Shown here one piece after another: positions 1-17,873 of a stretch of 64,000 bases of DNA. The translations under genes were made by a program, and so were the position numbers. Each line of letters starts with the position of its first letter. Positions within the stretch are counted from its first letter, which is position 1. The notes under the pieces were generated by a model. It worked only from the letters and a program-made list of their open reading frames with translations. It searched no databases and was not told the DNA's origin. Source of the stretch: an uncultured Kiritimatiellota bacterium (GTDB taxonomy: Bacteria > Verrucomicrobiota > Kiritimatiellia > RFP12 > UBA1067); the NCBI GenBank assembly GCA_934635045.1, contig CAKTZA010000003.1:13143-77142 (forward strand). Direction: 5' to 3'.

Positions 1-883
1 ATGGTTTTCGTTTGTTCTTAATTTTCTAATAAAGCCCTTTGTCATAGAGCAATGTCAACATCGGATTACGAGATTGGTTTTTGCTAAAGATTCAATTCCG
101 CGTTATTTAAAAGAGTTGTCTAGATTTATGCCAGAGGAAGATAGCGTTTATCATTCGAGGGCTTTCGAATTTGTTCAACAGTATATTGGGGGAAATCGAA
201 TACTCTCAAGGATCTGTAAGTTTTTTGATGAAGTACTAGTTGATGAAGTCCAAGATTATGCAGGTTATGATTTTGATTTCATAGAGTTGCTTGGGCAATC
301 GGATATTGATGTAACGATTGTAGGCGATTTCTTTCAACATACTTTCGATACGAGCCGTGATGGTGCAAAGGACAAAACATTGCATGATGACTTTTCTGTA
401 TACAAAAAAAGACTCGGTAAATATTATAAATTGGATGAGTGCACGCTGTCGAAAAGTTATCGGTGTACTGCAGAGGTTAGTTTGTTTATTAAGGAGAAGT
501 TAGGCATTGCAATCGAATCACACCATAGCCATAAGGATGAGAACGGGCCAGTGTTAATTGCCGACAAAACAGAGATCGAAACGATTATGCTCAATCCTTC
601 GTGCAAGAAACTTTTTTATCAAAAGTATTACGACTATCGTTGTGACGGAGGGAATTGGGGAGATTGCAAAGGACTGTCGTATGAGAATGTCTGCGTAGTG
701 TTGAATCCTACTACGCTAAAATGTTTCTTGACAGATAATTTGTCTGGTTTGTCGCCTAAAACTCGGAATAAATTTTATGTTGCATGCACAAGAACAAAGG
801 GGAATCTTTGTTTTATTAAAGAATCGGATATTGTATCGTACAAAAAAGGTAATGGCGCCGCACCTGATCGGAGGAATGCGTGA
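1..883 (+). CDS. UvrD/Rep-like superfamily-1 DNA helicase, C-terminal part (5' end lies outside the window)
   Basis: The frame of the 74..883 ORF has no stop in codons 2..73, so the gene runs off the left edge. SF1 motifs are visible: VLVDEVQDY (motif II), TIVGDFFQ (III), SKSYRC (IV), CKGLSYENVCVV (V), FYVACTRTKGNL (VI). The segment is very AT-rich (first 60 nt about one-third GC). Confidence 0.7.
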   Translation, partial: WFSFVLNFLIKPFVIEQCQHRITRLVFAKDSIPRYLKELSRFMPEEDSVYHSRAFEFVQQYIGGNRILSRICKFFDEVLVDEVQDYAGYDFDFIELLGQSDIDVTIVGDFFQHTFDTSRDGAKDKTLHDDFSVYKKRLGKYYKLDECTLSKSYRCTAEVSLFIKEKLGIAIESHHSHKDENGPVLIADKTEIETIMLNPSCKKLFYQKYYDYRCDGGNWGDCKGLSYENVCVVLNPTTLKCFLTDNLSGLSPKTRNKFYVACTRTKGNLCFIKESDIVSYKKGNGAAPDRRNA

Positions 884-987
884 TGCGTCTGCGAGGATTT
901 GACTACAAGCGGCCATTCTTTTATATGGTGACGCTGAAGCGGCTGCCGGAGCTGGCGGCCTTATCCCCACGATTTGCTATAATCTGA
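883..987 (+). pseudogene. 34-codon remnant resembling the N-terminus of an IS200/IS605-family Y1 (RAYT-like) transposase
   Basis: ATG 883 overlaps the helicase stop (TGATG). Translation is MRLRGFDYKRPFFYMVTLKRLPELAALSPRFAII*. The RL[KR]G[FY]DY..P..Y.VT opening matches my recollection of RAYT-type transposase N-termini. It stops after 34 codons, at the AT-rich/mid-GC junction. Confidence 0.3.
975..983 (+). promoter_or_regulatory. Extended -10 promoter (TGcTATAAT) upstream of the AlbA_2/DrmA-like/DrmB-like operon
   Basis: The string gatTTGCTATAAT is the same motif found upstream of ppdK, cpaB, valS and others. It lies 18 nt upstream of ATG 1002. Confidence 0.45.
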
Positions 988-1001
988 AATAAGAAGTTTC
1001 C

Positions 1002-2492
1002 ATGAAACGTGACGAATCGCAGAATGTCGAATACAAGGAAAGCTGGCACGACAAGTATCTTGCCTGGATATGCGGCTATGCCAATGCGCAGGGCGGCACA
1101 ATCTACTTCGGCATCGAGGACGGCACTAAGAAGCCGGTCGGCGTGAAAAACGCCAACAAGTTGATGGAGGACGTTCCCAACAAGATACGCGATACGATGG
1201 GCATTGTCGCGGATGTCGCCCTGCTGCGCAAAAGCGGCAAGGATGTCATTCGCGTAAAAGTAAAGAAGAGCATCTTCCCCGTCTGCTATCACGGCGAATA
1301 CCACTACCGCACTGGCGCGGTGAAGATGATTCTCACAGGTTCGTCTTTGACGCAGTTCCTTTTGGAGAAAAGCGGACTGGATTGGGACTCGGCCCCGACA
1401 TTCAGCGGATTCAAGAAGGATGAGCATGCGTTTACCACATTGGCCGCACGATACAAGAAAGAACGCAAGGTCAAGCTGCTGGACTCGGATTTCGAATCGT
1501 TCGGATTAGCATTGCCGGACGGCCGCTTGACGAATGCAGGAGCGCTTTTGGCTGACGATTGCCCGCTTCGCCACTCGCGGGTGTTCTGCACCCGTTGGAA
1601 TGGGTGCGACATGGCGGCGGGTGTGATGGATGCCAAGGACGATCAGGAGTATTCCGGCGGAATCCTCTCCATGCTCCAGTACGCCGAGGACTTCGTGCGC
1701 GTAAACTCACGGCGGGCTTGGCACAAGCTGGCGCGGACGCGCGTAGAGTTCGTGGAGTATCCAGAGAGGGCCGTTCACGAGGCGCTCGTCAACGCATTCA
1801 TACATCGAGACTACCTCGTGACTGGAAGTGAAGTCCATGTGGATATCTTTGACGACAGGCTTGAAATCACATCTCCTGGCGGGATGCCGGGCGAGCGCAG
1901 TTTGGAGGATTTCGATATCCGTAGCATGCCGTCCATTCGCCGCAATCCACTTCTTGCGGACATGTGCGAACGGCTGAAGATCATGGAACGACGCGGGAGC
2001 GGCGTCAAAAAGATATTCGAGGACTACACGAAGATCTTCAAGAATCCAGGTGCCCGGATGCCTAAACTGGAATCCTTCCCCACCTATTTCCGTACAACGC
2101 TGCCGAACTTGATCTATGGTTACAACGATGAGCAGCTGGTTAGTGTTATACATGCTGTGTCCCCAGTCATGACCCCAGTTGCGACCCCAGTCATGACCCC
2201 AGTTGTGCCCCCAGTCATGCCCCCAGTCGAAAAACCGAGTGAAACGCTGATAGACGCAGTGCAAAGGAAGGTGTTGGCGGTACTCAAAGCGGGTGGCGTC
2301 ATGTCCACATCCGAACTGGCGGGGAAAGTCGGCATCAGCCAATCGAAGAATATGCGGAGACGCTATCTCAGGCTTCTGCTCGACATGGGGCTTGTGGAAT
2401 ACACGATTCCGCATAAGCCCAATTCGCGCCTTCAGAAATACCGGCTTACAGAGAAAGGGTGCGCTTTGAGTGAGAGTGAGAATGGGGAGTGA
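1002..2492 (+). CDS. Schlafen-like AlbA_2 domain + HATPase_c_4-type ATPase + C-terminal winged-HTH protein (COG2865-type 'RecG-like' putative regulator)
   Basis: The N-terminus ESQNVEYKESW...GGTIYFGIEDG is typical of AlbA_2/Schlafen cores. The middle region AVHEALVNAFIHRDY...LEITSPGG...RRNPLLADM...ERRGSGVKKI is typical of the HATPase_c_4 module. The C-terminal segment VLKAGGVMSTSELAGKVGIS...YLRLLLDMGLVEY is wHTH-like. Confidence 0.8.
   Translation: MKRDESQNVEYKESWHDKYLAWICGYANAQGGTIYFGIEDGTKKPVGVKNANKLMEDVPNKIRDTMGIVADVALLRKSGKDVIRVKVKKSIFPVCYHGEYHYRTGAVKMILTGSSLTQFLLEKSGLDWDSAPTFSGFKKDEHAFTTLAARYKKERKVKLLDSDFESFGLALPDGRLTNAGALLADDCPLRHSRVFCTRWNGCDMAAGVMDAKDDQEYSGGILSMLQYAEDFVRVNSRRAWHKLARTRVEFVEYPERAVHEALVNAFIHRDYLVTGSEVHVDIFDDRLEITSPGGMPGERSLEDFDIRSMPSIRRNPLLADMCERLKIMERRGSGVKKIFEDYTKIFKNPGARMPKLESFPTYFRTTLPNLIYGYNDEQLVSVIHAVSPVMTPVATPVMTPVVPPVMPPVEKPSETLIDAVQRKVLAVLKAGGVMSTSELAGKVGISQSKNMRRRYLRLLLDMGLVEYTIPHKPNSRLQKYRLTEKGCALSESENGE
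2161..2231 (+). repeat. Six tandem 12-nt units (CCCCAGTyrykr) encoding (PVMT/PVAT)n in the linker before the wHTH
   Basis: Units read directly: ccccagtcatga / ccccagttgcga / ccccagtcatga / ccccagttgtgc / ccccagtcatgc / ccccagtcgaa. Protein: SPVMTPVATPVMTPVVPPVMPPVE. Confidence 0.9.
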
Positions 2493-2500
2493 GAGTGTGA
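2468..2500 (+). repeat. GAGTGA/GAGAGT microsatellite spanning the stop codon of the AlbA_2 gene
   Basis: Sequence gagtgagagtgagaatggggagtgagagtgtga encodes ...SESENGE*, with stop TGA at 2490..2492. Confidence 0.8.
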
Positions 2501-2521
2501 ATAATTTCAGGAGGATTTCCA

Positions 2522-5500
2522 ATGGCTAAAGAACACGAAAACGCAGAATCGCAACCGTTGCCGACAGCTTGGACGCTTCCGGCGGCAAAATCCTGCAGGT
2601 TCAAAGTCGCGTGCGAGGGCGAAGAGTCCGCGTATGAGGTGATTAATCCAGGCGACGCGATGTTGCTTCTCGACGAGTCTGGCGAAATTGCATGGGGTGT
2701 CAGGCGGGTGTTCTTCGTGAGGCGTGAGCGCGACAGGAGCATTATATACTTCGACAGGTTCCTGGATTTTGAAAGGACAATGCCTTTGCAGACGATCCGT
2801 GGTGGCGCGCAAACGCTTCGTAAAATCGATTTGGAGCAGATCGACGACGTTCTGGCTTCTTATCAGTCAGGACGACCCAAGGATCCGTCCATACCGGAAG
2901 ACGAGGAGTTGCTACCGCTCGACTTCTCTGAACTTTGCGAGATGGAGGTCGGTGACGATTCAAAGGGGCAGACGCGGGCTTATGTTCGAGAGCTTCTTGA
3001 AACCGTCGTAGCGGATGATTTGCTCGGCCCTGCGCTGGGACCGCACGAGGAGATCGTCGGCATGAGCGTCAGGGATAGGTACATCCTTGGCCGCCTTGGG
3101 CCTCGAAGGGTAGAGAGTGGGAGTGGGAGTGGGAGTGGGGAATGCAACTCCGCACTTCCCACTTCGCACGCGCACTTATTGAAGAGTGCGCAAGACGAGG
3201 GGGTGGAAATGACCGAGGACGGCGAGGCACAGACCGAGAACAAGGACGGAAACGCCGATCACATTGACCATGGCGACTCGAAAATGGGCGCCTCGGACAT
3301 CGCAGAAGAGGAGGTTGCCGAGGACGTTGTCGATGGAGATGATATCTTGCGCTCGAATTCGCTTGTGCCTTCTTCGATGGGGTTGACATTCTGCATTGAT
3401 GAAAGTCTCCCAGACATTGAGGTTGAAGCGAGGTGGGGCAGTTACTATCGCACCGACAGCGAAACGGCCTTCAGGGATAACGGAAAGCCGTTCAAGTGCT
3501 GGAAGCGCGTCCCGCTCGGCGGCAAGCAGGTCTTGAAGCTGGCGGAAGGCAAGATAGCCTCTTTCAACCCCGACAATTCGATAGGGCAAGTCTGCGTCGT
3601 CGGCTCTGTGTCGAAGCCGGTGGAGGGCTCAAGACTTGTCACACTCTTTCTCGTCAACAAGCAAGAGGAACGTAAAGAGCTTCGTGATGCGGCTTGGATT
3701 TTCCAGCCGGAGCTGATTGTGCGCTCGCCCGATGGGAAGGCGATATTCAGGAAGCGCCCGCTGCAGAACCTTTCCAAAGACGACGAGGAGATGAAATCGC
3801 TCGACATGCTCTATCGCCGAAAGGTCGAGTTCGCGGTCGGACACAACATTTCCGTCCATGCGGTTGCCTCCGAGGGCGATTACGAACTGGCGACCGAGGT
3901 GAGAACGGTGTCGATTCCGCATTTCGAGGTTCCTGCCACGGAAGTGCCAGGGGCTTTTGATGGCGACCGCCCCGTTCTGAAAGACATCGCGTCCAAGCAC
4001 CTCCTTGACATGTATGAAATCGCCAAGTGCGTTGAGGATGGAGACTCGGCAAAGATCGACGCGAGCGCAATAGGCCTCATCGTTGATGACTATGCGGCGT
4101 GGATCGAAGAACAGAAAGCCATTGCGCAAACAAAGGGATTCTCTTTTTTCAAGAAATCCGCAGAGATCAACCTTAAGAAGTGCGAGAGTATTCTCGCCCG
4201 TCTGCGCGAAGGCGTCAAGACGCTCAAGAACGACGCCAATGCGAGAAAGGCCTTTGCGTTCGCCAATACAGCGATGGCGGAACAGCGCATACACTCCATC
4301 TTTTCGCTGCTAAGGCGGCAGAAGCAAAATCCCGGCATTGAGGAAATCAGGAACGCCGTGAAGAACCACGAATGGCGTCCGTTCCAGCTGGCATTCATCT
4401 TGTTGGCGATTCCATCGCTCGCCGATCCTACGCACAAGGATCGGACGTGTTCGGCCGATGCGTTCGCCGACCTCCTGTGGTTCCCCACGGGCGGCGGCAA
4501 GACCGAGGCGTACCTCGGTGTAGCTGCGTTCGCAATGGCTGTCAGACGGCTTCAGGGGAATCTTGGTGGACTGGACTCCAGCCGTGGGCTTGCCGTAATT
4601 ATGCGTTATACCTTGCGTTTGCTGACGGTTCAGCAGTTCCAGCGCGCGGCCACGCTCATTTGCGCGATGGAGAAAGCCCGCAGCGAGCATCCAGAAACGT
4701 GGGGCAAAGAGCCGTTCTCGCTTGGGCTGTGGGTTGGCAACAAGACGACGCCCAATAGCTACAAGGATAGCCGTGACATCGTCCGTAAGGCGCATGAAGG
4801 CAATCCGTCCAGCGGTGCCACTCCTGCGCAGCTGACGACCTGCCCGTGGTGCGGTGCGGATATACGTGAAGGAACAGACGTTGTTTGTCACGATGAAGAC
4901 ATGACGACAAGGCTGTTCTGTAGCGATTTCGAGTGCGATTTTTCGCAGCACAAGCACGAGTCGGGAATACCGGTTAAGACTGTCGATGACGAAATGTATC
5001 ATCGCCCGCCGTCCATGATGATAGGCACCGTGGACAAGTTCGCGCAGATGGCTTGGCGCGGCTCGGTCAGGACACTTTTCGGCAAGGCTGAAAAGGAATG
5101 CGTCAGACATGGGATCATCTGTCCTGACGATGATTGCAACGGTTTCCATGTGAAGCCCGCCACGCATCCGAAGGCCATTCAGCAGATACGTCCGCCGGAT
5201 TTGATCATTCAAGACGAGTTCCACCTCATTAGCGGTCCGCTCGGAACGATGGTCGGGCTCTATGAATCCGCCGTCGACGAACTGTGTTCGTGGTCGTCGG
5301 ACGGTACCAACAAGATCCATCCAAAAATCGTGGCCTCCACCGCAACGGTGCGAATGGCCGACGAACAGATAAACCGCGTGTTTTACCGCAAGTGTTCCGT
5401 CTTCCCGCCGAGCGGCATCGACATCGAGGACAATTTCTTCTCGAAACAGCGGCCTACGGAAGACAAGTTCGGACGTGACTACATGGGCGTATGTGCCCTT

Positions 5501-6619
5501 GGAACGTCGAGACCAGCGGCGCTGATCCGCACCTACGTTGCGTTCCTCACGGCTGGGCAGACGCTATTCGACAGCTTCGGGAGGCTCGCAGACCCCTACA
5601 TGACGGTCATCGGATACTTCAATTCGCTGCGGGAACTCGGCGGCATGCGCCGCCTTTCCGAAGACGACGTGCAGACCCGTAGCTACCGCGTGGCGCTTGA
5701 CAGTCGTGTAAGGCGTCCTGGACTCTCGCAACGCCGTGTCACGATGATTGACGAGTTGACCTCCCGAGTCAGCAGCCGTAGCATCCCTGAAAAGCTGAAC
5801 CAACTGGAAGTCGAGTTCAAGGCTGGGTACGCCAAGGGAGAGGCGCGTCCAATGGACATTGTCCTTGCGACAAACATGCTCTCGGTCGGCGTTGACGTTG
5901 ACAGGCTTGGACTGATGATCGCGAACGGGCAGCCGAAAAACACGGCGGAATACATACAGGCGACAAGCCGCGTCGGGCGAAAGCATCCCGGTGTGGTCTG
6001 CACGGTCTTCGCATGGGCGCGACCGCGCGATTTCTCGCACTACGAGGCGTTCGAGCACTATCACGCGACGTTCTACAAGCAAGTTGAGGCGCAAAGCGTG
6101 ACGCCGTTCTCGAAGAGAGCGCTTGACAGGGGACTTACGGGGGCGTTGGTCAGCGATATACGCCTTGCGAATGCCGCGTTGAGTGCAAACAGAGGCGCTG
6201 CTGAACTCAAGACGGCCATAGACCCGCGAGCGAAACAGGCGACGGACGCATTTTCCGACCGCGCGGCGCATGTTATGGACAATGAAGCGGGGAACGCCGT
6301 TAGAGACGAGCTGAAGGACAGGATCGACAGGTGGGTCAAGGCCGCGACGCAGGCCGGAAGAACACTCGGCTACGAAACGGAGTCCAAGGCAGGTGAAGTC
6401 GTCGGGCATCTAAAGCGTCCAGGACTCGCCATGTGGGACAAGGAAACCGTGCCGACGTCCATGCGAGAGGTCGAGAGTAGTGTTCGTCTCATCATGAACA
6501 AGAGCACGATAGACGGGGACGGAGGGCCAAAGCAATGGGAGTTTCGTCCGGCCGATGACGAATCCGAGAGTTCCGAAGGAACGCAGGCCACCGAAAACGA
6601 CACAAGAGCAAAGGAGTAG
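2522..6619 (+). CDS. DrmA-like large SF2 DExH helicase (DISARM-type) with an extended N-terminal region
   Basis: AGGAGG RBS 8 nt upstream. Helicase motifs: LLWFPTGGGKTEAYLG (Walker A / motif I), LIIQDEFHLISGPLG (DExH), LATNMLSVGVDVDRLGLMI (V), QATSRVGRKHPG (VI). The pre-helicase region (SLVPSSMGLTFCI...LVTLFLVN...WIFQPELIVRS...LYRRKVEFAVGHNISV) matches my recollection of DrmA. The gene is followed by a translationally coupled DUF1998 gene. Confidence 0.75.
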   Translation: MAKEHENAESQPLPTAWTLPAAKSCRFKVACEGEESAYEVINPGDAMLLLDESGEIAWGVRRVFFVRRERDRSIIYFDRFLDFERTMPLQTIRGGAQTLRKIDLEQIDDVLASYQSGRPKDPSIPEDEELLPLDFSELCEMEVGDDSKGQTRAYVRELLETVVADDLLGPALGPHEEIVGMSVRDRYILGRLGPRRVESGSGSGSGECNSALPTSHAHLLKSAQDEGVEMTEDGEAQTENKDGNADHIDHGDSKMGASDIAEEEVAEDVVDGDDILRSNSLVPSSMGLTFCIDESLPDIEVEARWGSYYRTDSETAFRDNGKPFKCWKRVPLGGKQVLKLAEGKIASFNPDNSIGQVCVVGSVSKPVEGSRLVTLFLVNKQEERKELRDAAWIFQPELIVRSPDGKAIFRKRPLQNLSKDDEEMKSLDMLYRRKVEFAVGHNISVHAVASEGDYELATEVRTVSIPHFEVPATEVPGAFDGDRPVLKDIASKHLLDMYEIAKCVEDGDSAKIDASAIGLIVDDYAAWIEEQKAIAQTKGFSFFKKSAEINLKKCESILARLREGVKTLKNDANARKAFAFANTAMAEQRIHSIFSLLRRQKQNPGIEEIRNAVKNHEWRPFQLAFILLAIPSLADPTHKDRTCSADAFADLLWFPTGGGKTEAYLGVAAFAMAVRRLQGNLGGLDSSRGLAVIMRYTLRLLTVQQFQRAATLICAMEKARSEHPETWGKEPFSLGLWVGNKTTPNSYKDSRDIVRKAHEGNPSSGATPAQLTTCPWCGADIREGTDVVCHDEDMTTRLFCSDFECDFSQHKHESGIPVKTVDDEMYHRPPSMMIGTVDKFAQMAWRGSVRTLFGKAEKECVRHGIICPDDDCNGFHVKPATHPKAIQQIRPPDLIIQDEFHLISGPLGTMVGLYESAVDELCSWSSDGTNKIHPKIVASTATVRMADEQINRVFYRKCSVFPPSGIDIEDNFFSKQRPTEDKFGRDYMGVCALGTSRPAALIRTYVAFLTAGQTLFDSFGRLADPYMTVIGYFNSLRELGGMRRLSEDDVQTRSYRVALDSRVRRPGLSQRRVTMIDELTSRVSSRSIPEKLNQLEVEFKAGYAKGEARPMDIVLATNMLSVGVDVDRLGLMIANGQPKNTAEYIQATSRVGRKHPGVVCTVFAWARPRDFSHYEAFEHYHATFYKQVEAQSVTPFSKRALDRGLTGALVSDIRLANAALSANRGAAELKTAIDPRAKQATDAFSDRAAHVMDNEAGNAVRDELKDRIDRWVKAATQAGRTLGYETESKAGEVVGHLKRPGLAMWDKETVPTSMREVESSVRLIMNKSTIDGDGGPKQWEFRPADDESESSEGTQATENDTRAKE
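3113..3140 (+). repeat. (GTGGGA)n hexamer repeat with a canonical G-quadruplex motif GGGAGTGGGAGTGGGAGTGGGG
   Basis: Read directly at 3119..3140: four G3+ runs with 3-nt loops on the coding strand. It encodes ESGSGSGSGE at the start of an acidic low-complexity linker. Confidence 0.9.
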
Positions 6620-6622
6620 GAC

Positions 6623-8479
6623 ATGGCGAACGATTGCAGAGTGGGGAACATCCGTCCCAGCCAGCTCATCTGGACTTACGGTCCGGGGGCGATGATAGAC
6701 CTTCCGAACTTCTCCGTCATGACGATGGGACTTGATTACTGGAAACAGAGCGAGTGCAAGCCCATTGAGGAGCCGAGACTTCTTGAGCAGGTGCGCAAGA
6801 TGTGCGGCCCGCAGGTCAAGTTCCTGTTCCAGCCGCCCGCTTCGGAGGTGGACGACGATTCTCCGCACAATCCGAAATCTTACGTAGGTGTGCCGGTCCA
6901 GCCGTTTCCGCGCTGGTTCAGGTGCGTGAAGTGCGGACTTCTCGCAACATACGATTCAGGCCTCTTTGAAATCAAGGAAAACTTCTACAGGCCGGAGAGA
7001 ACGCGATTTGTCCATGCCAATTGTCCAAAGGGATTCAAAGGGAAGCCTGTCGATGCAGTCCCCGTGCGTTTCCTTGTCGCCTGCAAGAACGGCCACATTG
7101 ACGAATTCCCCTGGCGGTGGTTTGTCCACGATGGCCCGACAGACTGCACGGCCCCCCTCTACTTCTATGAAAAAGGTGCGTCACTCCAGACGGAGAACCT
7201 CTGGGTTGAATGTCGGCAATGCAACAAGAAGAAGTCGATGGCAATGGCCTTCGGCGCAATCGGCGAACAGACTCTGCCGGCATGCCGAGGGCATCATCCG
7301 CATCTTGGGCATGATACGGACAGCTTCAGCGAATGCAAGGAGAAGATTCGGCCGATTCTTCTTGGCGCGTCAAACAGCTGGTTTCCCGTGACAATGTCCG
7401 TCCTTGCAATCCCCACACGGGAAAACGAGCTTGCTCAACTCGTTGCGGACAATTGGAAGGCTTTAAGCACCGTAGCAAGCGAAGAAATACTCAAGGCGTT
7501 CTTTGCCATGTGGACCGCAACAGGCGACATGTCTGAATTGCGCGCATTTGACATACATGAGGTATGGCAGGCGATTCTGAAGGAGCGCGATCCGAGCAAA
7601 CAGGGCAAGGTGACGCAGGAGGATGTCAAGATTCCCGAATGGAGGGAGCTGACGAGCGAAAAACCCGTCGGGAAATTCCCGCATTTCCTTTGCAGCCAAG
7701 GCACCGTCCCGGAAGTGTTCTCGGGCGTGCTGAAGAAGGTGGTTCTTCTCGAGAGACTCCGCAAAGTAAACGCGCTGGTGGGTTTCACGCGCATTGAGGC
7801 GCGGGATGAATTTGCGGACAACGCCACCGCGCCATCCCGACTCGGTAAAGGCGCTCCGACATGGGTGCCGGCTTGCGAGGTGTTCGGCGAGGGGCTGTTC
7901 CTGCAGTTCGACGAACAGGCTGTAAAGGACTGGGAAGAACTACCTGCCGTAAAGGAAGAGCGCAAACGTCTTGAAATCGGCTACAGGAGTTGGCGTACCA
8001 ATCGGGGGCTTGATGCGTCAAAGGGTTTCCCCGGCGCAAGGTACTACATGCTTCATACGCTGGCTCATCTGTTCATACGAGAGTTGGCCCTTGAGTGCGG
8101 GTACAATGCAGCCAGCATCCAGGAGCGTATCTACGCCCAGGGCGGTGACAATCCTATGGCGGGAATTCTTGTCTATACGGCTGCTTCCGATTCTGACGGT
8201 ACGCTTGGGGGGCTGGTGGAACTTGGAACGCCGTCGAGACTTGAGCAGATCATGCGTCAGGCGATAAGCAGGGCTTCCACATGCTCATCAGATCCGCTTT
8301 GCAGCGAACACGATCCTAGCACCGACGGCACGCTTCACGCTTCGGCATGCCATGCTTGTTCGTTTGTTTCGGAGACCTCATGCGAAACAGGGAACCGCTA
8401 TCTAGACAGGGCATTTGTAGTCCCGACATATTCCATCAAGGATGCTGCATTCTTCAATGGGGTTGCACTCAATGAATGA
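6623..8479 (+). CDS. DrmB-like DUF1998 (MrfA Zn-binding domain) protein
   Basis: The AAGGAG RBS lies in the last codons of the upstream gene, with 3 nt between its stop and ATG 6623. The N-terminus VGNIRPSQLIWTYGPGAMIDL is DrmB-like. There is an internal Zn-ribbon, FRCVKCGLL...HANCPKG...ACKNGHIDEFPWRWFVH. The C-terminal DUF1998 signature is HTLAHLFIRE...SDSDGTLGGLVEL...CSSDPLC...ACHACSFVSETSCETGNRYLDR. Confidence 0.8.
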   Translation: MANDCRVGNIRPSQLIWTYGPGAMIDLPNFSVMTMGLDYWKQSECKPIEEPRLLEQVRKMCGPQVKFLFQPPASEVDDDSPHNPKSYVGVPVQPFPRWFRCVKCGLLATYDSGLFEIKENFYRPERTRFVHANCPKGFKGKPVDAVPVRFLVACKNGHIDEFPWRWFVHDGPTDCTAPLYFYEKGASLQTENLWVECRQCNKKKSMAMAFGAIGEQTLPACRGHHPHLGHDTDSFSECKEKIRPILLGASNSWFPVTMSVLAIPTRENELAQLVADNWKALSTVASEEILKAFFAMWTATGDMSELRAFDIHEVWQAILKERDPSKQGKVTQEDVKIPEWRELTSEKPVGKFPHFLCSQGTVPEVFSGVLKKVVLLERLRKVNALVGFTRIEARDEFADNATAPSRLGKGAPTWVPACEVFGEGLFLQFDEQAVKDWEELPAVKEERKRLEIGYRSWRTNRGLDASKGFPGARYYMLHTLAHLFIRELALECGYNAASIQERIYAQGGDNPMAGILVYTAASDSDGTLGGLVELGTPSRLEQIMRQAISRASTCSSDPLCSEHDPSTDGTLHASACHACSFVSETSCETGNRYLDRAFVVPTYSIKDAAFFNGVALNE

Positions 8480-8518
8480 CATCTATTCCATCGCAGCGAA
8501 AATTGCGGTGCTGTATCC

Positions 8519-9518
8519 ATGCGACACGATTCGGCACATAGCGAGGATTACTCTGTTTATTACTCATCAGCCATGACAAGTGTCATGGTGGCTAACGGGT
8601 CAATTACCAACAACCTCGTTTTTTACTATCCAGGATACGACACCGATCCCAGCAATCCCAACACGGACGCTGACGGGCTTACGGACTACGAGGAGCTCTT
8701 CGTCTACAATACCAATCCGCTTAATCCGCACTCCGTATGCGATACCTACTGCGACGGCATAGCGGTCAAGATAGGCGACATCAATCCGTTTTCATATCCC
8801 GAAGGCTCGACGAACACCGTTCTCGAACACGTGTTTTACTCAGGAACGACGAACGGTGCCTTCGCCTATCCGCAGTCATCCGACAGCATGGCTGTACTGG
8901 AGGTGTCCGTGTCCGGCTCTGGGTTGACTTGCACATGGCGAGGCAACGGCAACGTCGAGGTCGAGAACAATCCGCCGAGGGCGGCGACGATCATCACGTA
9001 CAAGTCATACCGCCTGCGGCTCATGGACGCCAACGGAGCCAGTTTCAGCCGGACGGAGAGATCCGGCGACGTCAATCTCGCGGGCGTCTGCCCGAGTTCA
9101 GCCGTCGGCGACGCAACTCTTGCCTTCTCCCGCAACGGCGAAATCTACTTATACACCTTGGAACCGCCCCGATTCTGAATGTGACAACCGCCATTTCGTG
9201 TTTGTTCACGGATACAATGTGAACGCTTCTCAGGCGCAGCAATGGGCCAATAACGTATTCAAGAGGCTGTGGTGGTCTGGGTTGCGTTCGCGTTTCACCG
9301 CAGTTGACTGGTATGGAGACGATTCGCAGTTGGCGAACGATGTGTCGCCAAATTACTACATCAATCAAAAGTACGATGGAGACATCCCCAGCATCGGCGG
9401 AGTAACGTTTTTGTACTACTTGAATCCCAGCTCGCTTGACAGGAATCTTGAGTACAAGACAGGCTCAAACCTCAATCCTGCGGAACCCAATCCTGCTGAT
9501 GGGCATTTTAAGCCATAA
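8519..9518 (+). pseudogene. Decayed fragment of a secreted TSP3-repeat / alpha-beta-hydrolase (DUF900-like) protein, frameshifted and truncated at both ends
   Basis: ORF 8519..9178 has calcium-binding thrombospondin-type-3-like repeats (DTDPSNPNTDADGLTDYEELFVYNTNPLNPHS) but no signal peptide. The hydrolase-like continuation RHFVFVHGYNVNASQAQQWANNVFKRLWWSG..AVDWYGDDSQ is in another frame (ORF 9120..9518) and ends prematurely. Confidence 0.5.
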
Positions 9519-9578
9519 CTGATATCGGCAAATTCCGGTTTCCGTGCATCGGCGGTCTCGACGGCGGGCATGCGATTT

Positions 9579-9587
9579 TGCTATAAT
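9579..9587 (+). promoter_or_regulatory. Extended -10 promoter (TGcTATAAT) of ppdK
   Basis: The string gcgatTTTGCTATAATtcg lies 46 nt upstream of ATG 9634. The leader is A-rich (three CTGAAA units). Confidence 0.5.
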
Positions 9588-9633: not shown

Positions 9634-12276
9634 ATGAAAAAGACTGACAAGAAGTACGTCTATTTCTTCGGCGCAGGGCAGACCGAAGGCAATGCGAACA
9701 TGCGCGAGCTCCTCGGCGGCAAGGGCGCCAACCTCGCGGAGATGGCGGGGCTCGGCCTCCCGGTGCCGCAGGGCTTCACGATCACGACCGAGGCGTGCAC
9801 GCGCTACTACGACGACGGCCGGAAGATCGCCGCCGACATCGAGCGGCAGGTCCTCGCCTACATCGAGAAGCTGGAGAAGTCCGCCGGCAAGAAGTTCGGC
9901 GACAGGAAGAACCCGCTGCTCGTCTCCGTCCGCTCCGGCGCGCGCGCGTCGATGCCGGGCATGATGGACACGATCCTCAACCTCGGCCTCAACGAGACGG
10001 TCGTCGAGTCGCTCGCGAAGCAGACGAAGAACCCGCGCTGGGCGTGGGACTGCTACCGCCGCTTCATCCAGATGTTCTCCGACGTCGTGATGGAGGTCGG
10101 CAAGAAGCACTTCGAGAAGCTCATCGACGAGATGAAGGCGAAGAAGCGCGTCAAGAACGACGTCGACCTCACGGCGAACGACCTCAAGGCCCTCGCCGGG
10201 CAGTTCAAGGCCGAGTACAGGGCGGCGATCGGGCGCGACTTCCCGACGGACGCGAAGGAGCAGCTCTTCGAGGCGATCAAGGCCGTGTTCCGCAGCTGGG
10301 ACAACCCGCGCGCGAACGTCTACCGCCGCGACAACGACATCCCGTACAGCTGGGGCACGGCGGTCAACGTGCAGATGATGGCGTTCGGCAACCTGAACGA
10401 CAACTCCGGCACGGGCGTCGCCTTCACGCGCGACCCGGCGACGGGCGAGAAGAAGCTCATGGGCGAGTTCCTCATGAACGCGCAGGGCGAGGACGTCGTC
10501 GCGGGCGTGCGCACGCCGATGCCGATCGCGAAGATGGCCGAGGTGATGCCGAAGGTCTTCAAGCAGTTCCAGAAGATCTGCGAGACGCTGGAGGCGCACT
10601 ACCGCGACATGCAGGACATGGAGTTCACGATCGAGAACCAGAAGCTCTTCATGCTCCAGACGCGCAACGGCAAGCGCACGGCGAAGGCGGCGCTGAAGAT
10701 CGCGTGCGACCTCGTCGACGAGGGCATGCGCACCGAGAAGGAGGCCGTGCTCATGATCGAGCCGCGCAACCTCGACACGCTCCTGCACCCGCAGTTCGAC
10801 GCGGTCGCGCTCAAGGGCGCGAAGCCGGTCGGGCGCGGCCTCGCGGCGTCGCCGGGCGCGGCGTGCGGCCAGATCGTCTTCACGGCGGCGGACGCGAAGG
10901 CGTGGAAGGCGAAGGGCAACAAGACCGTGCTCGTGCGCCTGGAGACCTCGCCGGAGGACATCGAGGGCATGAAGGCGGCGGAGGGCATCCTCACCGTGCG
11001 CGGCGGCATGACGAGCCACGCGGCCGTCGTCGCGCGCGGCATGGGCGAGTGCTGCGTCTCGGGCTGCCAGGAGATCGCGATGGACGAGGAGAACAGGAAG
11101 TTCGTCCTCGGCGGCAAGGTCTTCAAGGAGGGCGACTGGCTCTCCATCGACGGCTCGACGGGCTACATCTACGACGGCGTGATCCCGACGGTCGATGCGA
11201 CGATCGCCGGCGAGTTCGGCCGCATCATGCGCTGGGCCGACAAGTTCCGCCGCCTGCACGTCCGCACGAACGCCGACACGCCGCGCGACGCCCGCAAGGC
11301 GCGCGAGCTCGGCGCGGAGGGCATCGGCCTCTGCCGCACGGAGCACATGTTCTTCGAGGCCGACCGCATCGCGGCGTTCCGCGAGATGATCTGCGCCGAC
11401 ACGGTCGAGGAGCGCGAGCTCGCGCTCGCGAAGATCCTGCCGTACCAGCAGGACGACTTCGAGCAGCTCTTCGAGGCGCTGGAGGGCAAGCCGGTCACGA
11501 TTCGCTTCCTCGACCCGCCGCTGCACGAGTTCGTGCCGCATTCCGAGGACGAGATCAAGCTGCTCGCGAAGAGCCAGCACAAGACGGTCACGCAGATCGA
11601 GGAGCTGATCGAGTCCCTGCACGAGTTCAACCCGATGATGGGCCATCGCGGCTGCCGCCTCTGCGTCACGTACCCGGAGATCGCCCGCATGCAGACGACG
11701 GCGGTCATCCGCGCGGCCGTCAAGGTGCAGAAGGCGCATCCGACCTGGTCGGTCAAGCCGGAGATCATGATTCCGCTCACGTGCGACGCGAAGGAGCTGA
11801 AGTTCGTCAAGGAGATCGTCGTCAAGACGGCGAACGCCGAGATCGCGCACGCCGACGTCAACATCGCCTACAAGGTCGGCACGATGATCGAGATCCCGCG
11901 CGCGGCGCTGACGGCGGACGAGATCGCGAAAGAGGCGCAGTTCTTCTGCTTCGGCACGAACGACCTCACGCAGATGACCTACGGCTTCTCGCGCGACGAC
12001 GCGGGCAAGTTCCTCGCGGCGTACTACGACAAGAAGATCTTCGAGAACGACCCGTTCGCGAAGCTCGACCAGAACGGCGTCGGCAAGCTCATGGAGATGG
12101 CGCTCCGGCTCGGCAAGGGCGTCCGCCCGAACCTCCACTGCGGCATCTGCGGCGAGCACGGCGGCGACCCGACCTCGGTCGAGTTCTGCCACCACCTCGG
12201 CCTCGACTACGTCAGCTGCTCGCCGTACCGCGTGCCGATCGCGCGCCTCGCGGCGGCCCAGGCGGCCCTGCGGTAA
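9634..12276 (+). CDS. ppdK: Pyruvate, phosphate dikinase
   Basis: 880 aa. N-terminus KYVYFFGAGQTEGNANMRELLGGKGANLAEMAGLGLPVPQGFTITTEAC. Phospho-His region GGMTSHAAVVARGMG. PEP-utiliser C-terminus GICGEHGGDPTSVEF. Confidence 0.95.
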   Translation: MKKTDKKYVYFFGAGQTEGNANMRELLGGKGANLAEMAGLGLPVPQGFTITTEACTRYYDDGRKIAADIERQVLAYIEKLEKSAGKKFGDRKNPLLVSVRSGARASMPGMMDTILNLGLNETVVESLAKQTKNPRWAWDCYRRFIQMFSDVVMEVGKKHFEKLIDEMKAKKRVKNDVDLTANDLKALAGQFKAEYRAAIGRDFPTDAKEQLFEAIKAVFRSWDNPRANVYRRDNDIPYSWGTAVNVQMMAFGNLNDNSGTGVAFTRDPATGEKKLMGEFLMNAQGEDVVAGVRTPMPIAKMAEVMPKVFKQFQKICETLEAHYRDMQDMEFTIENQKLFMLQTRNGKRTAKAALKIACDLVDEGMRTEKEAVLMIEPRNLDTLLHPQFDAVALKGAKPVGRGLAASPGAACGQIVFTAADAKAWKAKGNKTVLVRLETSPEDIEGMKAAEGILTVRGGMTSHAAVVARGMGECCVSGCQEIAMDEENRKFVLGGKVFKEGDWLSIDGSTGYIYDGVIPTVDATIAGEFGRIMRWADKFRRLHVRTNADTPRDARKARELGAEGIGLCRTEHMFFEADRIAAFREMICADTVEERELALAKILPYQQDDFEQLFEALEGKPVTIRFLDPPLHEFVPHSEDEIKLLAKSQHKTVTQIEELIESLHEFNPMMGHRGCRLCVTYPEIARMQTTAVIRAAVKVQKAHPTWSVKPEIMIPLTCDAKELKFVKEIVVKTANAEIAHADVNIAYKVGTMIEIPRAALTADEIAKEAQFFCFGTNDLTQMTYGFSRDDAGKFLAAYYDKKIFENDPFAKLDQNGVGKLMEMALRLGKGVRPNLHCGICGEHGGDPTSVEFCHHLGLDYVSCSPYRVPIARLAAAQAALR

Positions 12277-14240: not shown

Positions 14241-14266
14241 ACGGGGTACCATTTGGCGCGCGGATT

Positions 14267-14275
14267 TGGTACACT
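14267..14275 (+). promoter_or_regulatory. Extended -10-like promoter (TGgTACACT), 7 nt upstream of ATG 14283 (leaderless configuration)
   Basis: cggatTTGGTACACT attgcgc ATG; same upstream context (ggattTG) as the atpB promoter. Confidence 0.4.
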
Positions 14276-14282
14276 ATTGCGC

Positions 14283-17200
14283 ATGAGCAAGGACAACAAC
14301 ATCTTTGGATGCTTTTTCGACGTCAACAGGACAGGCTTGAGGACGAGCCTTCGTCCGAGCCAGCGGGCAAGTCTTGGGCGGTTGTTGTCATGGGTCCTGG
14401 CGGTTGCCCTTGTGGGCCTTGGCGGTGTCGCGCCGCGTGTGGCACGGGCGGCGGGGCCGATTGCCGAGCTCTACCCCACGCACCTGACGGTGCTGTCGGA
14501 CTTCGATGACGGCACGGCCGCGTCGGCCATCCTCGGCCTGAAGGCCCCGACCGGCAAATACGTCGTCGGCGCCGCGTCCGGACTGTTCGGCTCGTCCGCC
14601 CTCCTCGGCGGCGGATTCTCCTTCCCGCTCGACAAGGCGTCCGCGAAACGTCACTTCGACACGGCGAAGCCCGGCACCGTCCTCTTCTGGATCAAGCTCA
14701 CCGAAGGCTTCCCCGCCGACATCAAGGCCGACCCCGGCTGCACGCACTTTCACGCGATGTGGACGCCGACCAAGCGGATGCTCGTCTTCCGCCAGGACGG
14801 CAAGAGCTGCGGCGCAAGCGGCCAGGCCCCGATGAGCGTCTACTTCCACTGTCCGGCGGCGGACGGCAAGAACTACGCGATCCGCTCCGACATCGGGCCG
14901 AGTTTCCGCAACTGGAAAGTGGGGGAGTGGCATCTCGTCGCGGCGACGTGGCGGCCCGACGGCTTTGCGCTCTCCTACGACGGCGGCCCGTTCAAGTCCG
15001 TCATCTCCACCGAGCCGCTGGGGCCGGGCATCTGCAACATCGGCTTTTCCGTGCCGACGGCGGCGGGGACAGGCCCGGGCTCCTGCGCGATGGACGACTG
15101 CGCGGTGCTGGACTTCGCCCTGTCGGACGATCAGGTCCGGGAACTCTGGGACGAGTACCAGGCGCGGTTCAAGGAGTCGCCGCGCGTGGCGGACGACGTG
15201 CGGGTCGAGCTTGTTTCCTGCGCGGCGAAGGACGAGTCGCACTACGAGATCGCCGTCAAGGCGACGAATCCGTCCGCCAAGCCGGCGGAGATCGTCTTCG
15301 CCGCGACGGCGAAGCCCACGCATTCGCAGCCGGCGACGACGCGCGAGGCGGTCACGCTCAAGCCGGGGCAGACGAAGACGTTCTCGCTCGTCGGCCCGTG
15401 CCTGAACGGCGAGACGGTCGTGGCGGACTTCGGCGTGCGGACGGTTGCGGATCGGCGCACGCTTTTCCGTCGGCACCGGACGTTCGCGCCGAACGCGCCG
15501 GAGCCCGAATGGATGCGTGCGCCGTCCGCCGTCAGCTTCAAGTTCGCCTACTATCCCTACGCGAACACGATCCATGCGGCGGCCGACATCACGGGCTGCG
15601 AGGATTTCGCGAAGGCGAAGACGCTTCGGCTGTCGGTTTTCGCGAAGGGCGCGCAGAAGCCGCTCGCCACGAAGGACTTCGCGCCGTCCGCGAACGGCAA
15701 GAGCGAGTTCTTCTGGCGAGACCTGCCTGAACTCGACGGCGCCTACGTCTGCCGTTTCGAGGCGGTCGGCCTCGCGAACGCGACGGCGGAGCAGGCGTTC
15801 CTGCGCACGCGGTTCGACTGGGAACACAACGCGCTCGGCCTGTCGGACGCGATTCCGGAGCCTTTCAGGAAGGTGGAAAGGTGGAAGAGTGGAAAGGTGG
15901 AAAAGTGCGAGGGTGGAAGGGTGGAAGAGTGGAAGGGTGGAAGGGTGGAAGGGTGCGAGGGTGAGACGGTGCGCGTCGTCTTGCGCGATCATTTCGTCGA
16001 TCCGCAGACGGGCCTGTGGAAGCAGGTCGAGGCGGCCGGCAAGCCCGTCCTCGCCCGCCCCATGCGCCTCGCCCATCCCTCGTCCCCCGCAACCGATTCC
16101 CAAGCCCTCGCCGCGCAGACGACCTGGGACGTCGACGGCCTGATGGAATGGACGCTGACGCTGAAGCCGGGCCGCTGCGAGCCGCTGACGCTGGAGATCC
16201 CGCTCCGCGCGGAGCGCGCGCCGCTGATGCACACCTGCGTGGACGGGCTGCGGTCGAACTACGCGGGCAAGGTCCCGGCGGGCACGGGGCGCGTGTGGGC
16301 GAGTTCCGAGGCGCCGGGCCGTCAGCAGATCGTCGGCGACTACGTGCCGTACCTCTGGGTCGGCGGGCCGCTGCGCGGCCTCGCCGTCTTCGGCGAGAAC
16401 GACCGCGGCTGGGTGCTGGACGGGAAGCCCTGCCAGGAGATCGTCCGCGAGGCGGACGGCACGACGGTCATCCGTCTCAACCTCGTGCAGAAGCCCTGCG
16501 AGATCCGCTCGCCGCGCACGATCCGCCTCGGGTTCATGGCCACGCCGGTGAAGCCGATGGCGGCGGACTGGCGGTCGCGCGATCACGGCACCCTGCTCGG
16601 CGCGTGCTGGTACTGGGGCGGCGAGACGGCGTGCAACTCGATAGAGCCGTTCGACGGCACGGACGAGTATTTCCGCGTGATGAGCGAAGAGCGCCGCACG
16701 GGCCGGATGGACAAGGCCTACCTCGAACGCGCGGTCGCCGCGTTCCCCTACGCGGCGAAGCCGGGCACGGTCGCGTGGTCCAACGAGGTGAAGACGATCC
16801 GGGCGCACTTCAACAACGGGCTCAGCAACGCGGCGCGCGCGGGCTTGGCGGGGCGGCTCACGTTCTACACGAACGCGCGCGGCGTCCACTACGGCGACCC
16901 GAAGGGGCAGGGCGCGACGTTCTGCAACGAATGGAACCGCTTCGAGTACATGAGCCGCGACATCGCGCGCAAGACGCAGAAGGCGTACGACCTGCATCCG
17001 AATCCGAGCTACCGCGACTATGCGGCGTGGTGGTACGCGAAGATGCTCGCGACGGGCGCGTGCGACTACCTCTACTGGGACGACGTCTTCCTGAGCGGCA
17101 ACTTCAACCTGGTCCAGAGCGACGCCTACCGCCTGCCGGACGGGAGCATCCAGCCGGCGACCGGCGTCTTCGACCTGCGCGCGATGATCCGCCGCGCGGC

Positions 17201-17873
17201 CGTCCTGCAGACCGAGCTCGGCCGTGACGCGACGGGCAACTGGGTGCACATGACGAACACGGCGATCGCCCCGATCTGCTCGTTCGCCGGCGTCAACTAC
17301 GACTGGGAGGACATGACGGGAGACCGTCCGCATCAGGAGAAGTACCCGAAGGACTACATCCTCGCGTGCACGATCGGGCGGCAGTTCGGCAACCGCGTCG
17401 GCATCATGGGCTACTTCGTGCACGGGATGGACAACAGGAGCGAACGCGGCCAGTGGCTGCAGCGCACGGGCGCGGGCGTCATGCTGACGCACGAGCTTCG
17501 GTGGAACCGCTGGTCGGGGCACGACCTCTACGAGAAGGCGCACGGCTTCCTCTGCGACTGGGGCTACCGTACGCCGTCCGTCGACGTCTGGAACTACTGG
17601 GACGAGGACGTGCCGTTCCCCGTCGCCGTCTCGGGCGTGGACGCCGCGTCGATTGCGATGGCCAAGCGGGACGCGGGCGAGGCGATGGTCTGCGTGTCGT
17701 CCTTCGAGGGCCGCGACGGCGTCGTCACGCTTGTGCCGGACGCGCGGACGCTCGGCCTGAAGGACGGCTGGACGGCCGCGCACGCGCTCACGGGCGAGGC
17801 GGTCGCCGTCACGGACGGGCGGATCTCGCTCGACCTTCCGAAGTACGACTGGATCCTTCTGAAGCTCAAGTGA
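14283..17873 (+). CDS. Large secreted protein, paralog 1: LamG/concanavalin-like N-terminal region plus a conserved ~650-aa C-terminal module (possible DUF6067 / glycoside-hydrolase-like)
   Basis: The ORF track starts at 14253; ATG 14283 is preferred because of the promoter position. A hydrophobic signal-like segment LLSWVLAVALVGLGGVAP is present. The C-terminal two-thirds aligns by eye with ORF 24731..28060 (for example TTWDVDGLMEWTLTLKPG / TTWDVDGLMTWELTLPPG and GDYVPYLWVGGPLRGLAVFGENDRGWV / GDYLPYIWIGGPLRGIAVFGESDKGWV). The functional call is tentative. Confidence 0.7.
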   Translation: MSKDNNIFGCFFDVNRTGLRTSLRPSQRASLGRLLSWVLAVALVGLGGVAPRVARAAGPIAELYPTHLTVLSDFDDGTAASAILGLKAPTGKYVVGAASGLFGSSALLGGGFSFPLDKASAKRHFDTAKPGTVLFWIKLTEGFPADIKADPGCTHFHAMWTPTKRMLVFRQDGKSCGASGQAPMSVYFHCPAADGKNYAIRSDIGPSFRNWKVGEWHLVAATWRPDGFALSYDGGPFKSVISTEPLGPGICNIGFSVPTAAGTGPGSCAMDDCAVLDFALSDDQVRELWDEYQARFKESPRVADDVRVELVSCAAKDESHYEIAVKATNPSAKPAEIVFAATAKPTHSQPATTREAVTLKPGQTKTFSLVGPCLNGETVVADFGVRTVADRRTLFRRHRTFAPNAPEPEWMRAPSAVSFKFAYYPYANTIHAAADITGCEDFAKAKTLRLSVFAKGAQKPLATKDFAPSANGKSEFFWRDLPELDGAYVCRFEAVGLANATAEQAFLRTRFDWEHNALGLSDAIPEPFRKVERWKSGKVEKCEGGRVEEWKGGRVEGCEGETVRVVLRDHFVDPQTGLWKQVEAAGKPVLARPMRLAHPSSPATDSQALAAQTTWDVDGLMEWTLTLKPGRCEPLTLEIPLRAERAPLMHTCVDGLRSNYAGKVPAGTGRVWASSEAPGRQQIVGDYVPYLWVGGPLRGLAVFGENDRGWVLDGKPCQEIVREADGTTVIRLNLVQKPCEIRSPRTIRLGFMATPVKPMAADWRSRDHGTLLGACWYWGGETACNSIEPFDGTDEYFRVMSEERRTGRMDKAYLERAVAAFPYAAKPGTVAWSNEVKTIRAHFNNGLSNAARAGLAGRLTFYTNARGVHYGDPKGQGATFCNEWNRFEYMSRDIARKTQKAYDLHPNPSYRDYAAWWYAKMLATGACDYLYWDDVFLSGNFNLVQSDAYRLPDGSIQPATGVFDLRAMIRRAAVLQTELGRDATGNWVHMTNTAIAPICSFAGVNYDWEDMTGDRPHQEKYPKDYILACTIGRQFGNRVGIMGYFVHGMDNRSERGQWLQRTGAGVMLTHELRWNRWSGHDLYEKAHGFLCDWGYRTPSVDVWNYWDEDVPFPVAVSGVDAASIAMAKRDAGEAMVCVSSFEGRDGVVTLVPDARTLGLKDGWTAAHALTGEAVAVTDGRISLDLPKYDWILLKLK
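15868..15966 (+). repeat. Degenerate 9-nt tandem repeat (GGTGGAAGR)n, G3-tract rich, in frame
   Basis: ggaaggtggaaaggtggaagagtggaaaggtggaaaagtgcgagggtggaagggtggaagagtggaagggtggaagggtggaagggtgcgagggtgag encodes KVERWKSGKVEKCEGGRVEEWKGGRVEGCEGE. This segment is absent from the paralog at the same position. Confidence 0.85.

Follow-up and report, generated by a model that had tools for sequence, protein, structure and literature searches.

Can the helicase and DUF1998 partner of the DISARM defence system work with a Schlafen-type ATPase in place of a methyltransferase and a nuclease? The question is raised by three consecutive + strand genes located between positions 975 and 8479 of a 64,000-nt stretch of DNA (hereafter the window) from an uncultured Kiritimatiellota bacterium (contig CAKTZA010000003.1, positions 13,143 to 77,142). 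A preliminary description of the window, made from its sequence alone, had read them as a Schlafen/AlbA_2-ATPase gene followed by drmA and drmB, forming a DrmAB system without methyltransferase or SNF2 gene. According to the present analysis, region 975-8479 almost certainly makes up the right-hand portion of a class 1 DISARM locus. As a whole, this locus is not a new system but a variant of class 1 DISARM that harbours an internal mini-island of defence genes.

The identities of the three open reading frames (ORFs) were confirmed by Pfam, NCBIfam and PADLOC. The drmA gene (2522..6619, + strand) encodes a class 1 DISARM superfamily 2 (SF2) helicase of 1365 aa, matched by the NCBIfam equivalog NF038325 "DISARM system helicase DrmA" with 1347 bits (cut-off of 950) and by PADLOC DrmA with 1360 bits. 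The SF2 motifs mentioned earlier are indeed present, with motifs I, II, III and VI reading PTGGGKT (~656), DEFH (898), STAT (~939) and QATSRVGR (~1146), respectively. As for drmB (6623..8479, + strand), it encodes the 618-aa DUF1998/MZB partner of DrmA, recognised by NF038324 (DrmB_fam, 734 bits for a cut-off of 240), by Pfam MZB/DUF1998 (PF09369, E 6e-11) and by PADLOC DrmB. Its four-cysteine signature corresponds to C554, C560, C576 and C579 of the MZB domain.

An exact-sequence look-up of the Schlafen protein led to a 97-kb contig from a Hadza gut metagenome, whose locus L001 matches the window without a single difference for 12,492 nt and extends it leftwards; the same upstream arrangement is seen in three separately reported assemblies. 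The gene order on this contig, all on the same strand, is drmD, a 23S_rRNA_IVP gene, drmMI, an ankyrin gene, gajA, gajB, a stump of an HUH-transposase-like gene, the Schlafen-GHKL-wHTH (winged helix-turn-helix) gene, drmA, drmB and a stump of drmC. Left of the window and on the + strand, drmD (SNF2-rel_dom, 1076 aa) and drmMI (N6-adenine methyltransferase; Eco57I/MmeI_Mtase, 1410 aa) match the corresponding PADLOC models with 298 and 1638 bits, respectively, the end of drmMI being 4.3 kb away from the Schlafen gene and 5.8 kb away from drmA. The preliminary description had itself named genes just left of the window as what could overturn its methylation-free reading and, since drmMI and drmD were found there, this reading is refuted; it had arisen because the window edge hid both genes. 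Among the genes of class 1 DISARM, drmA, drmB, drmD and drmMI are thus all present and an intact drmC is missing. No drmMII is in view at this DISARM locus, and no other Drm gene lies in the rest of the window, which holds housekeeping genes such as those for valyl-tRNA synthetase, MutS and a type II secretion ATPase.

The GC content of the island is layered: drmD and drmMI are at 58-61%, the insert made of the ankyrin gene, gajA and gajB falls to 38-47%, and the part from the Schlafen gene to drmB is at 53-59%. To the right of the island, the chromosome has 63-71%. The insert contains a complete Gabija pair, in which GajA (ATPase and OLD-type TOPRIM nuclease) is followed by GajB (UvrD-like helicase). 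The former has 504 aa, with AAA_15 and OLD-like_TOPRIM domains and a full-length PADLOC GajA match of 298 bits, while the latter has 352 aa in L001 and matches the short-type PADLOC GajB model over its full length (184 bits, E 1e-54). Only the 3' part of gajB, the last gene of the insert, falls within the window (1..883, + strand), where the fragment still matches PADLOC GajB with an E value of 9e-34. It corresponds to the compositionally distinct helicase previously noticed upstream of the three genes: its distinct composition stands, with a GC content of 38-40% vs. 53-59% for the DISARM genes, but not its being all that lies there, since drmD and drmMI are found farther left. The Gabija and ankyrin genes are most likely a recent arrival from a low-GC donor. 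The locus is a mosaic, in which the specificity region of the methylase may be swapped separately.

Several observations concern the drmD-drmMI part of the locus. The 23S_rRNA_IVP gene located between the two (L001 1147-1488) encodes a four-helix-bundle protein of 113 aa; the closest relative of the locus, L083, which is otherwise 92% identical, is devoid of this gene and has a drmD-drmMI spacing of 28 nt. The C-terminal third of drmMI (L001 4200-5400) has a GC content of 47%, vs. ~60% across the remaining gene. Also, in locus L162 (drmMI at 3-2210), DrmA is 99% identical to the window DrmA, yet DrmMI is only 73% identical at the amino acid level.

The cargo slot at the drmMI-drmA junction

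Relatives of DrmA were surveyed in 79 genome loci and 78 metagenome loci, in which ORF calling was mechanical. The survey was seeded with the DrmA of this locus, so that its clade (PVC, i.e. Planctomycetota-Verrucomicrobiota-Chlamydiota) is over-represented. The canonical order across these loci is drmD-drmMI-drmA-drmB-drmC. Clustering of the DrmA proteins at 90% identity (single linkage) gave 42 clusters with both drmMI and drmA in view. The junction between these two genes is empty in 24 clusters, carries a Schlafen-ATPase gene directly 5' of drmA in six, and holds other genes in the remaining 12. These other genes code for AspBHI/Mrr-type and GmrSD-type modification-dependent restriction enzymes, an HTH_3+Peptidase_M78 fusion, a UvrD helicase, a short prokaryotic Argonaute (pAgo) with SIR2, AbiJ, SieB, an AAA_15+HNH pair, and paired DUF5677 proteins with a HATPase_c_3 protein. 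Slot content varies even inside a single 90% DrmA cluster, where the presence of the Schlafen gene is polymorphic (L041 vs. L213). Across class 1 DISARM loci, the drmMI-drmA junction therefore behaves as a cargo slot of polymorphic content. At the level of individual slots, those of L160/L166 (1-7344) and L004 (3148-7691) were seen to contain the short pAgo with SIR2, the AAA_15+HNH pair, AbiJ, SieB, and the HATPase_c_3 protein, which matches PADLOC type II restriction endonuclease models. In these sibling and cousin loci, the slot is thus in effect a defence mini-island within an operon.

Compared with L083, the cargo of the present locus was swapped precisely from the drmMI stop codon to position 886 of the window, 3 nt after the gajB stop. 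This point falls at the start of "x391", the 34-codon remnant of an HUH/Y1-transposase-like gene (883..987, + strand), whose ATG overlaps the gajB stop (TGATG). The remnant begins with MRLRGFDYKRPFFYMVTLKRLPELAA... and matches the N-terminus of intact genes of 391-404 aa with HUH-like motifs, found in L006 and L009. The first 80 nt beyond the swap point (886-965; L001 9885-9964) are 92-97% identical between loci with drmA, drmB and drmMI only ~70% identical, and they form the right edge of the variable cargo in every locus. When folded as single-stranded DNA, this border gave a z-score of -0.9, with no sign of a hairpin site. It may serve as a right-hand homology arm, or as a site, for cargo exchange. 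With such a defined and strain-variable slot, DISARM loci lend themselves well to the search for new defence genes.

The Schlafen gene beside drmA

The guest that adjoins drmA in the window (1002..2492, + strand) encodes a 496-aa protein of the Schlafen "HisKinase-HTH" or Schlatpase type, made of an SLFN AlbA_2 nuclease domain (SLFN_AlbA_2, PF04326, residues 5-107, E 5e-14), a GHKL ATPase domain (HATPase_c_4, PF13749, residues 275-367, E 1e-24) and a C-terminal wHTH (Fic-like_C, residues 424-483, E 5e-14, with sub-cut-off matches to HTH_AsnC-type and HTH_24 at 413-484). Among 55 aligned homologues, each residue of the Ex4ExK motif (E5-x4-E10-x-K12) is 93% conserved, N28 and D40 are conserved at 95 and 87%, respectively, G31/G32 are conserved too, and the GHKL boxes (N-box E260/N264, H268 and G332xG334) are invariant. 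In an N-terminal alignment of 46 sequences, E5 and K12 show no variation and E10 almost none. The SAFAN-like box (CGYAN) and the GG...G...D40 stretch are conserved as well. Concerning structures, the whole protein matched only 3LMM (uncharacterised) and a Fic C-terminal domain (4RGL; residues 416-487 aligned) among Protein Data Bank sequences. This search did not reach the SLFN structures, which a profile of the N-terminal domain did: SLFN14, Slfn13 (5YD0), SLFN11, SLFN12 and SLFN5 were matched with E values of 1e-12 to 1e-6 and with the catalytic motif aligned. Combining AlbA_2 with Ex4(E/D)xK and a Schlafen box, PF13749 with its ATP-binding boxes, and a C-terminal wHTH, the gene is, on these domains and motifs, a member of the abundant prokaryotic Schlafen (pSlfn) "HisKinase-HTH"/Schlatpase family, with its nuclease and ATP-binding motifs intact.

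Upstream of the gene, an extended -10 box, TGCTATAAT (975..983, + strand), is a candidate promoter of the Schlafen-drmA-drmB unit. It lies 18 nt from the Schlafen ATG, which implies a leader of ~11 nt. The box, already pointed out in the preliminary description, is conserved in L083, and TGATATAAT, a TGnTATAAT-type box, occurs at the same distance before homologous Schlafen genes in an unrelated context (L086/L087). As a promoter, it is a consensus match: lacking a good -35, it is not listed by a -35/-10 promoter scan. The three genes are tightly packed, as in an operon: 29 nt separate the Schlafen gene from drmA, whose ATG is preceded at 7 nt by AGGAGG (2509-2514), and 3 nt separate drmA from drmB, whose AAGGAG site (6611-6616) falls within drmA. 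Both gaps and both sites are as first reported. No convincing + strand terminator was found by scanning between or after the three genes, and a single transcript can be predicted for them.

Being first in the unit, right behind the candidate promoter, and ending in a wHTH with AsnC/HTH_24/Fic-like_C matches, the Schlafen protein could be thought of mainly as a transcription regulator, whose wHTH would repress or activate the drmAB operon following a BrxR/CapH-type logic, with the Schlafen and GHKL domains acting as sensors. COG2865 proteins have traditionally been annotated as regulators, and the same slot holds the HTH_3+Peptidase_M78 fusion in other class 1 loci. CapH-CapP-like regulators have also been reported with DISARM (10.1101/2022.04.27.489752). 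However, the 87-100% conservation of the Ex4ExK triad and of the ATP-binding boxes is unexpected for a pure sensor, the characterised relatives are tRNases, and the gene is also found at the 3' end of unrelated operons, where upstream regulation is impossible. A mainly regulatory role is thus rather improbable.

Far less probable still is an autonomous, methylation-free system of three genes, in which the Schlafen protein would replace the nuclease or the methyltransferase. It would agree with the candidate promoter of the unit, with the truncation of drmC in this strain and with the mobility of a 7.66-kb block, from the Schlafen gene through drmAB, between contexts; moreover, Serratia DrmABC without methylases still protects against M13 (10.1101/2021.12.28.474362). 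Yet the contig itself carries drmD and drmMI, on the strand of the three genes, and both are also found in every relative with enough upstream sequence. The earlier suggestion that the Schlafen ATPase stands in for a missing effector does not hold either: sibling and other loci (L004, L007, L009, L020, L160, L162 and others) carry the Schlafen gene alongside an intact drmC, which was lost only in the present strain.

Beyond this locus, a search profile (a hidden Markov model from 55 homologues) was used to follow the family. A Schlafen-ATPase gene was found immediately before drmA in 17 of the fetched loci, which are of PVC, Planctomycetota and Acidobacteriota type, with gaps of -4 to +42 nt. 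In a neighbour-joining tree, these drmA-adjacent copies are polyphyletic, falling on at least six separate branches interleaved with non-DISARM copies. Neither DrmA nor DrmB is encoded within 10 kb of the closest homologues of the window protein (L084-L090, 57-80% identity), whose neighbours are either an Eco57I-type methylase/TIR/RelA-SpoT set or a Z1/DUF4420/AIPR set, and the closest homologues of a longer type of the gene, also known beside drmA, are likewise without DrmAB (72-79% identity; L149, L151 and L154). No common family was found among 82 immediate neighbours of Schlafen homologues, in which restriction subunits, AIPR, HEPN, McrBC and housekeeping genes are all present. Because close homologues adjoin other defence genes in places devoid of DrmAB, the gene is not DISARM-specific. 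Judging from the tree and the neighbourhoods, the Schlafen-drmA association is recurrent, yet neither exclusive nor ancestral. The conserved adjacency of AlbA_2 genes and DrmAB, which the preliminary description had suggested as a check, is borne out as a recurrence, but not as a trait of DISARM.

The occurrence of homologues without DrmAB, the lack of a fixed partner, the polyphyletic tree and the TGnTATAAT box at the same distance elsewhere all suggest a gene that is autonomous relative to DrmAB, which we consider somewhat better supported than the opposite. In this lineage, the pSlfn gene has most likely become fixed beside drmA.

Several observations weigh against this autonomy, and they would also fit a Schlafen-ATPase that is a true DISARM accessory. 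It would then act with DrmAB, being an RNase effector that DrmAB sets off on foreign DNA, or else a guard firing upon phage inhibition of DISARM, and make DISARM a two-tier system wherever the gene is present. A guard of this kind has a possible model in PrrC, a tRNA-cutting anticodon nuclease of the ABC-ATPase type, nested in the EcoprrI type Ic restriction-modification operon and unrelated to Schlafen, for which a physical masking interaction has been shown; the likeness of the Schlafen protein to PrrC would be that of a tRNA-cutting enzyme encoded inside a restriction-modification-type operon. In addition to the adjacency in 17 loci from at least six branches, Schlafen-ATPases are the commonest slot occupants (6 of the 18 filled slots), and all multi-gene cargoes that include such a gene, except that of L029, have it adjoining drmA. 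ATGA overlaps between the two genes occur in several independent lineages. In the Kiritimatiellia-type clade, two subfamilies (496-504 and 625-647 aa) that are only ~29% identical hold the same position, the short type having replaced the long one in place, together with most of the HUH-like gene. Contexts with different flanks on either side share the 7.66-kb block (Schlafen gene to drmB) at 99% identity, which indicates that the block was transferred as a unit. Finally, the nuclease motif is kept in all scanned drmA-adjacent copies that could be read (11 of 15, the other four lacking or mis-starting their N-terminus), whereas it is lost in the non-adjacent copy of L029.

The positional recurrence, the two subfamilies in one position and the 7.66-kb block are equally compatible with a functional link and with a hotspot. 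Against the accessory role, however, the gene is absent from 36 of the 42 class 1 clusters, its presence is polymorphic in the L041/L213 cluster, the nearest homologues are found away from DrmAB in both subfamilies, and other slot genes are packed equally tightly against drmA; the bias of the survey towards the PVC clade further tempers the counts. An accessory role is accordingly possible but unlikely, though ahead of the regulatory one. Marginally less likely than this general form is the specific proposal that Schlafen-GHKL ATPases were recruited at least six times independently at a codon-overlapping site 5' of drmA, replaced in place by a distant homologue, and wired to DrmAB as a tRNA-cutting effector or guard. 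If so wired, they would provide DISARM with an abortive-infection arm, which could explain why its phospholipase D (PLD) nuclease is dispensable.

The explanation retained for the whole locus, a class 1 DISARM with a self-contained Schlafen guest, is favoured with a reasonable but not a high degree of confidence. Its DISARM steps are modelled on the Serratia and Bacillus systems and the part of the pSlfn on its family. DrmMI would methylate the host DNA at a non-palindromic motif, thereby marking self. The DrmAB helicase-DUF1998 complex would load on unmarked invading DNA and block its replication, aided by DrmD. The Schlafen protein would be a self-contained, ATP-gated tRNase providing a second, abortive-infection layer, with infection presumably sensed by its wHTH or through another cue, and it would substitute neither for the methyltransferase nor for DrmC. 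Its gene would be co-transcribed with drmAB from its own promoter because it settled in the slot, and not because DrmAB needs it.

The architecture of DrmA itself varies among the surveyed loci. L010 (8642-13894) has a 1750-aa DrmA with N-terminal HATPase_c_2 and DUF4325 (STAS-like) domains, which probably corresponds to the long PADLOC DrmA model; long DrmA forms were considered as possible carriers of a fused Schlafen module, but the extension in L010 is not an AlbA_2 domain and offers no Rosetta-stone fusion. L016 has a separate HATPase_c gene at the place of this extension, and various GHKL-type ATPases recur just upstream of DrmA or fused to it. In L020 (1552-7050), from a metagenome-assembled genome of Planctomycetota, drmA and drmB apparently form a single frame of 1832 aa, by fusion or sequencing error, with a 500-aa Schlafen-ATPase gene located 5 nt upstream.

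The loss of drmC and the right edge of the island

Downstream of drmB, the island decays into gene remnants, as had been noticed before. The first is a drmC stump (8472..8576, + strand), whose initial 24 codons are those of the intact sibling drmC, followed by 10 unrelated codons and a stop. L001 shares 98.96% identity with L160 along 7,657 nt (window 886-8542), and beyond this segment the two loci are unrelated in either direction; L160, with a different cargo, keeps the intact 253-aa drmC that is matched by the stump. A PLD gene follows drmB in 43 DrmA loci fetched from genomes, including the close relative L007, whose drmC at the orthologous position scores 239 bits with PADLOC DrmC. The gene is also present in the metagenome contigs with a DrmA 99-100% identical to that of the window (L160, L162, L166 and L231). 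Searching downstream of drmB and elsewhere by tblastn gave no PLD-type sequence beyond the stump, with one weak chance match (E 0.002) inside drmA. From these comparisons, drmC has evidently been lost recently and in this strain only.

In published deletions, drmC was not required for protection in either class 1 or class 2 DISARM (10.1101/2021.12.28.474362), and the remaining system may therefore well be active. The natural loss of the gene beside siblings that are 99% identical agrees with this experimental dispensability.

Fragments of a giant TSP3/LamG-type surface-protein gene come next (8618..8776 and 9150..9413, + strand). They were detected by tblastn with the 2255- and 2345-aa proteins of L087/L086, of which only two short pieces were matched (residues ~461-546 and ~1982-2097). 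A 219-aa ORF (8519-9178) spans these fragments, has no Pfam match above cut-off and is probably not a gene. It was also considered as a diverged DrmC, and rejected, as neither a PLD match nor any resemblance to the DrmC queries was seen.

At the right edge of the island lies the gene for pyruvate phosphate dikinase (PPDK; 9634-12276). Just before it (9558-9587) is the promoter-like site that ranks first on the + strand over the initial 9.7 kb of the window, reading TCGACG-18-TATAAT with an upstream TG. A search of genome contigs with this PPDK neighbour for an empty insertion site matched only Firmicutes PPDKs, at 75-80% identity. The relatives of the Drm, Schlafen and surface-protein genes loosely point to a high-GC, PVC-type gut bacterium as the host. 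Farther right, in the high-GC chromosome, three very long + strand ORFs, 14253-17873 (1206 aa), 17366-22984 (1872 aa) and 24680-28060 (1126 aa), have no Pfam match at E 1e-5; long spurious ORFs are common on both strands at this GC content.

Comparison with known systems

The reference for class 1 DISARM is the drmD-drmMI-drmA-drmB-drmC locus of Serratia sp. SCBI (10.1101/2021.12.28.474362), a structure being available for DrmAB (PMC9142583). The present locus shares with it the five gene families, their order and strand, the SF2 motifs of DrmA and the zinc cysteines of DrmB. It differs by the reduction of drmC to a 24-codon stump, by the 5.8 kb of foreign genes (ankyrin, Gabija and Schlafen-ATPase-wHTH) between drmMI and drmA, and by the 23S_rRNA_IVP gene between drmD and drmMI. 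The combination of genes had been put forward as undescribed. For the system itself, a class 1 DISARM, this does not apply, and the guest family is known as well; in the literature searched, no paper was found to connect DISARM to Schlafen-type genes or to an internal slot for cargo, and neither the slot with its conserved border nor the recurrent adjacency of Schlafen genes and drmA is described there for DISARM.

As for the guest, the "HisKinase-HTH" architecture represents 19% of the prokaryotic Schlafens, and ~70% of the pSlfn genes are near defence genes (PMC13056530). pSlfns act as single-gene defences, two other architectures (Ig-like and DUF262) protecting E. coli by tRNA cutting, but two HisKinase-type pSlfns gave no protection in E. 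coli against the phage panel used (PMC13056530). This result speaks against a self-contained guest, and stand-alone defence by the HisKinase-HTH architecture is unproven. In SLFN-pAgo, the Schlafen+GHKL "Schlatpase" unit tetramerises on ATP and cleaves tRNA, and a near-identical Schlatpase was seen moving between a pAgo operon and a type I restriction-modification operon (10.64898/2026.05.29.728809). The Schlafen protein of the window has in common with this family AlbA_2, PF13749 and a C-terminal HTH, the Ex4ExK motif, the SAFAN-like box, the N-box, the G-box and the defence-island setting. Two differences stand out, namely the sensor parts (Ig-like, DUF262 or pAgo) of the characterised members, and the operonic setting of the present gene with drmAB.

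The closest parallel to the whole arrangement is offered by BREX. Core BREX loci in at least 1017 taxa carry nested Schlafen-HisK-wHTH RNases and OLD/TOPRIM nucleases, which were read as backup suicidal effectors, in a survey that makes no mention of DISARM (PMC12839542). In both cases, the host is a methylation-based, non-canonical restriction-like system, and Schlafen-HisK-wHTH proteins and OLD/TOPRIM ATPase-nucleases (e.g. GajA) are guests between its core genes. The host is here DISARM instead of BREX, and the guests are gathered in one defined junction, between drmMI and drmA, with a conserved right border. With Schlafen-HisK-wHTH as the commonest guest of the DISARM slot, the present locus and its relatives mirror the BREX report, suggesting a general pairing of methylation-based DNA defence with a tRNA-cutting backup.

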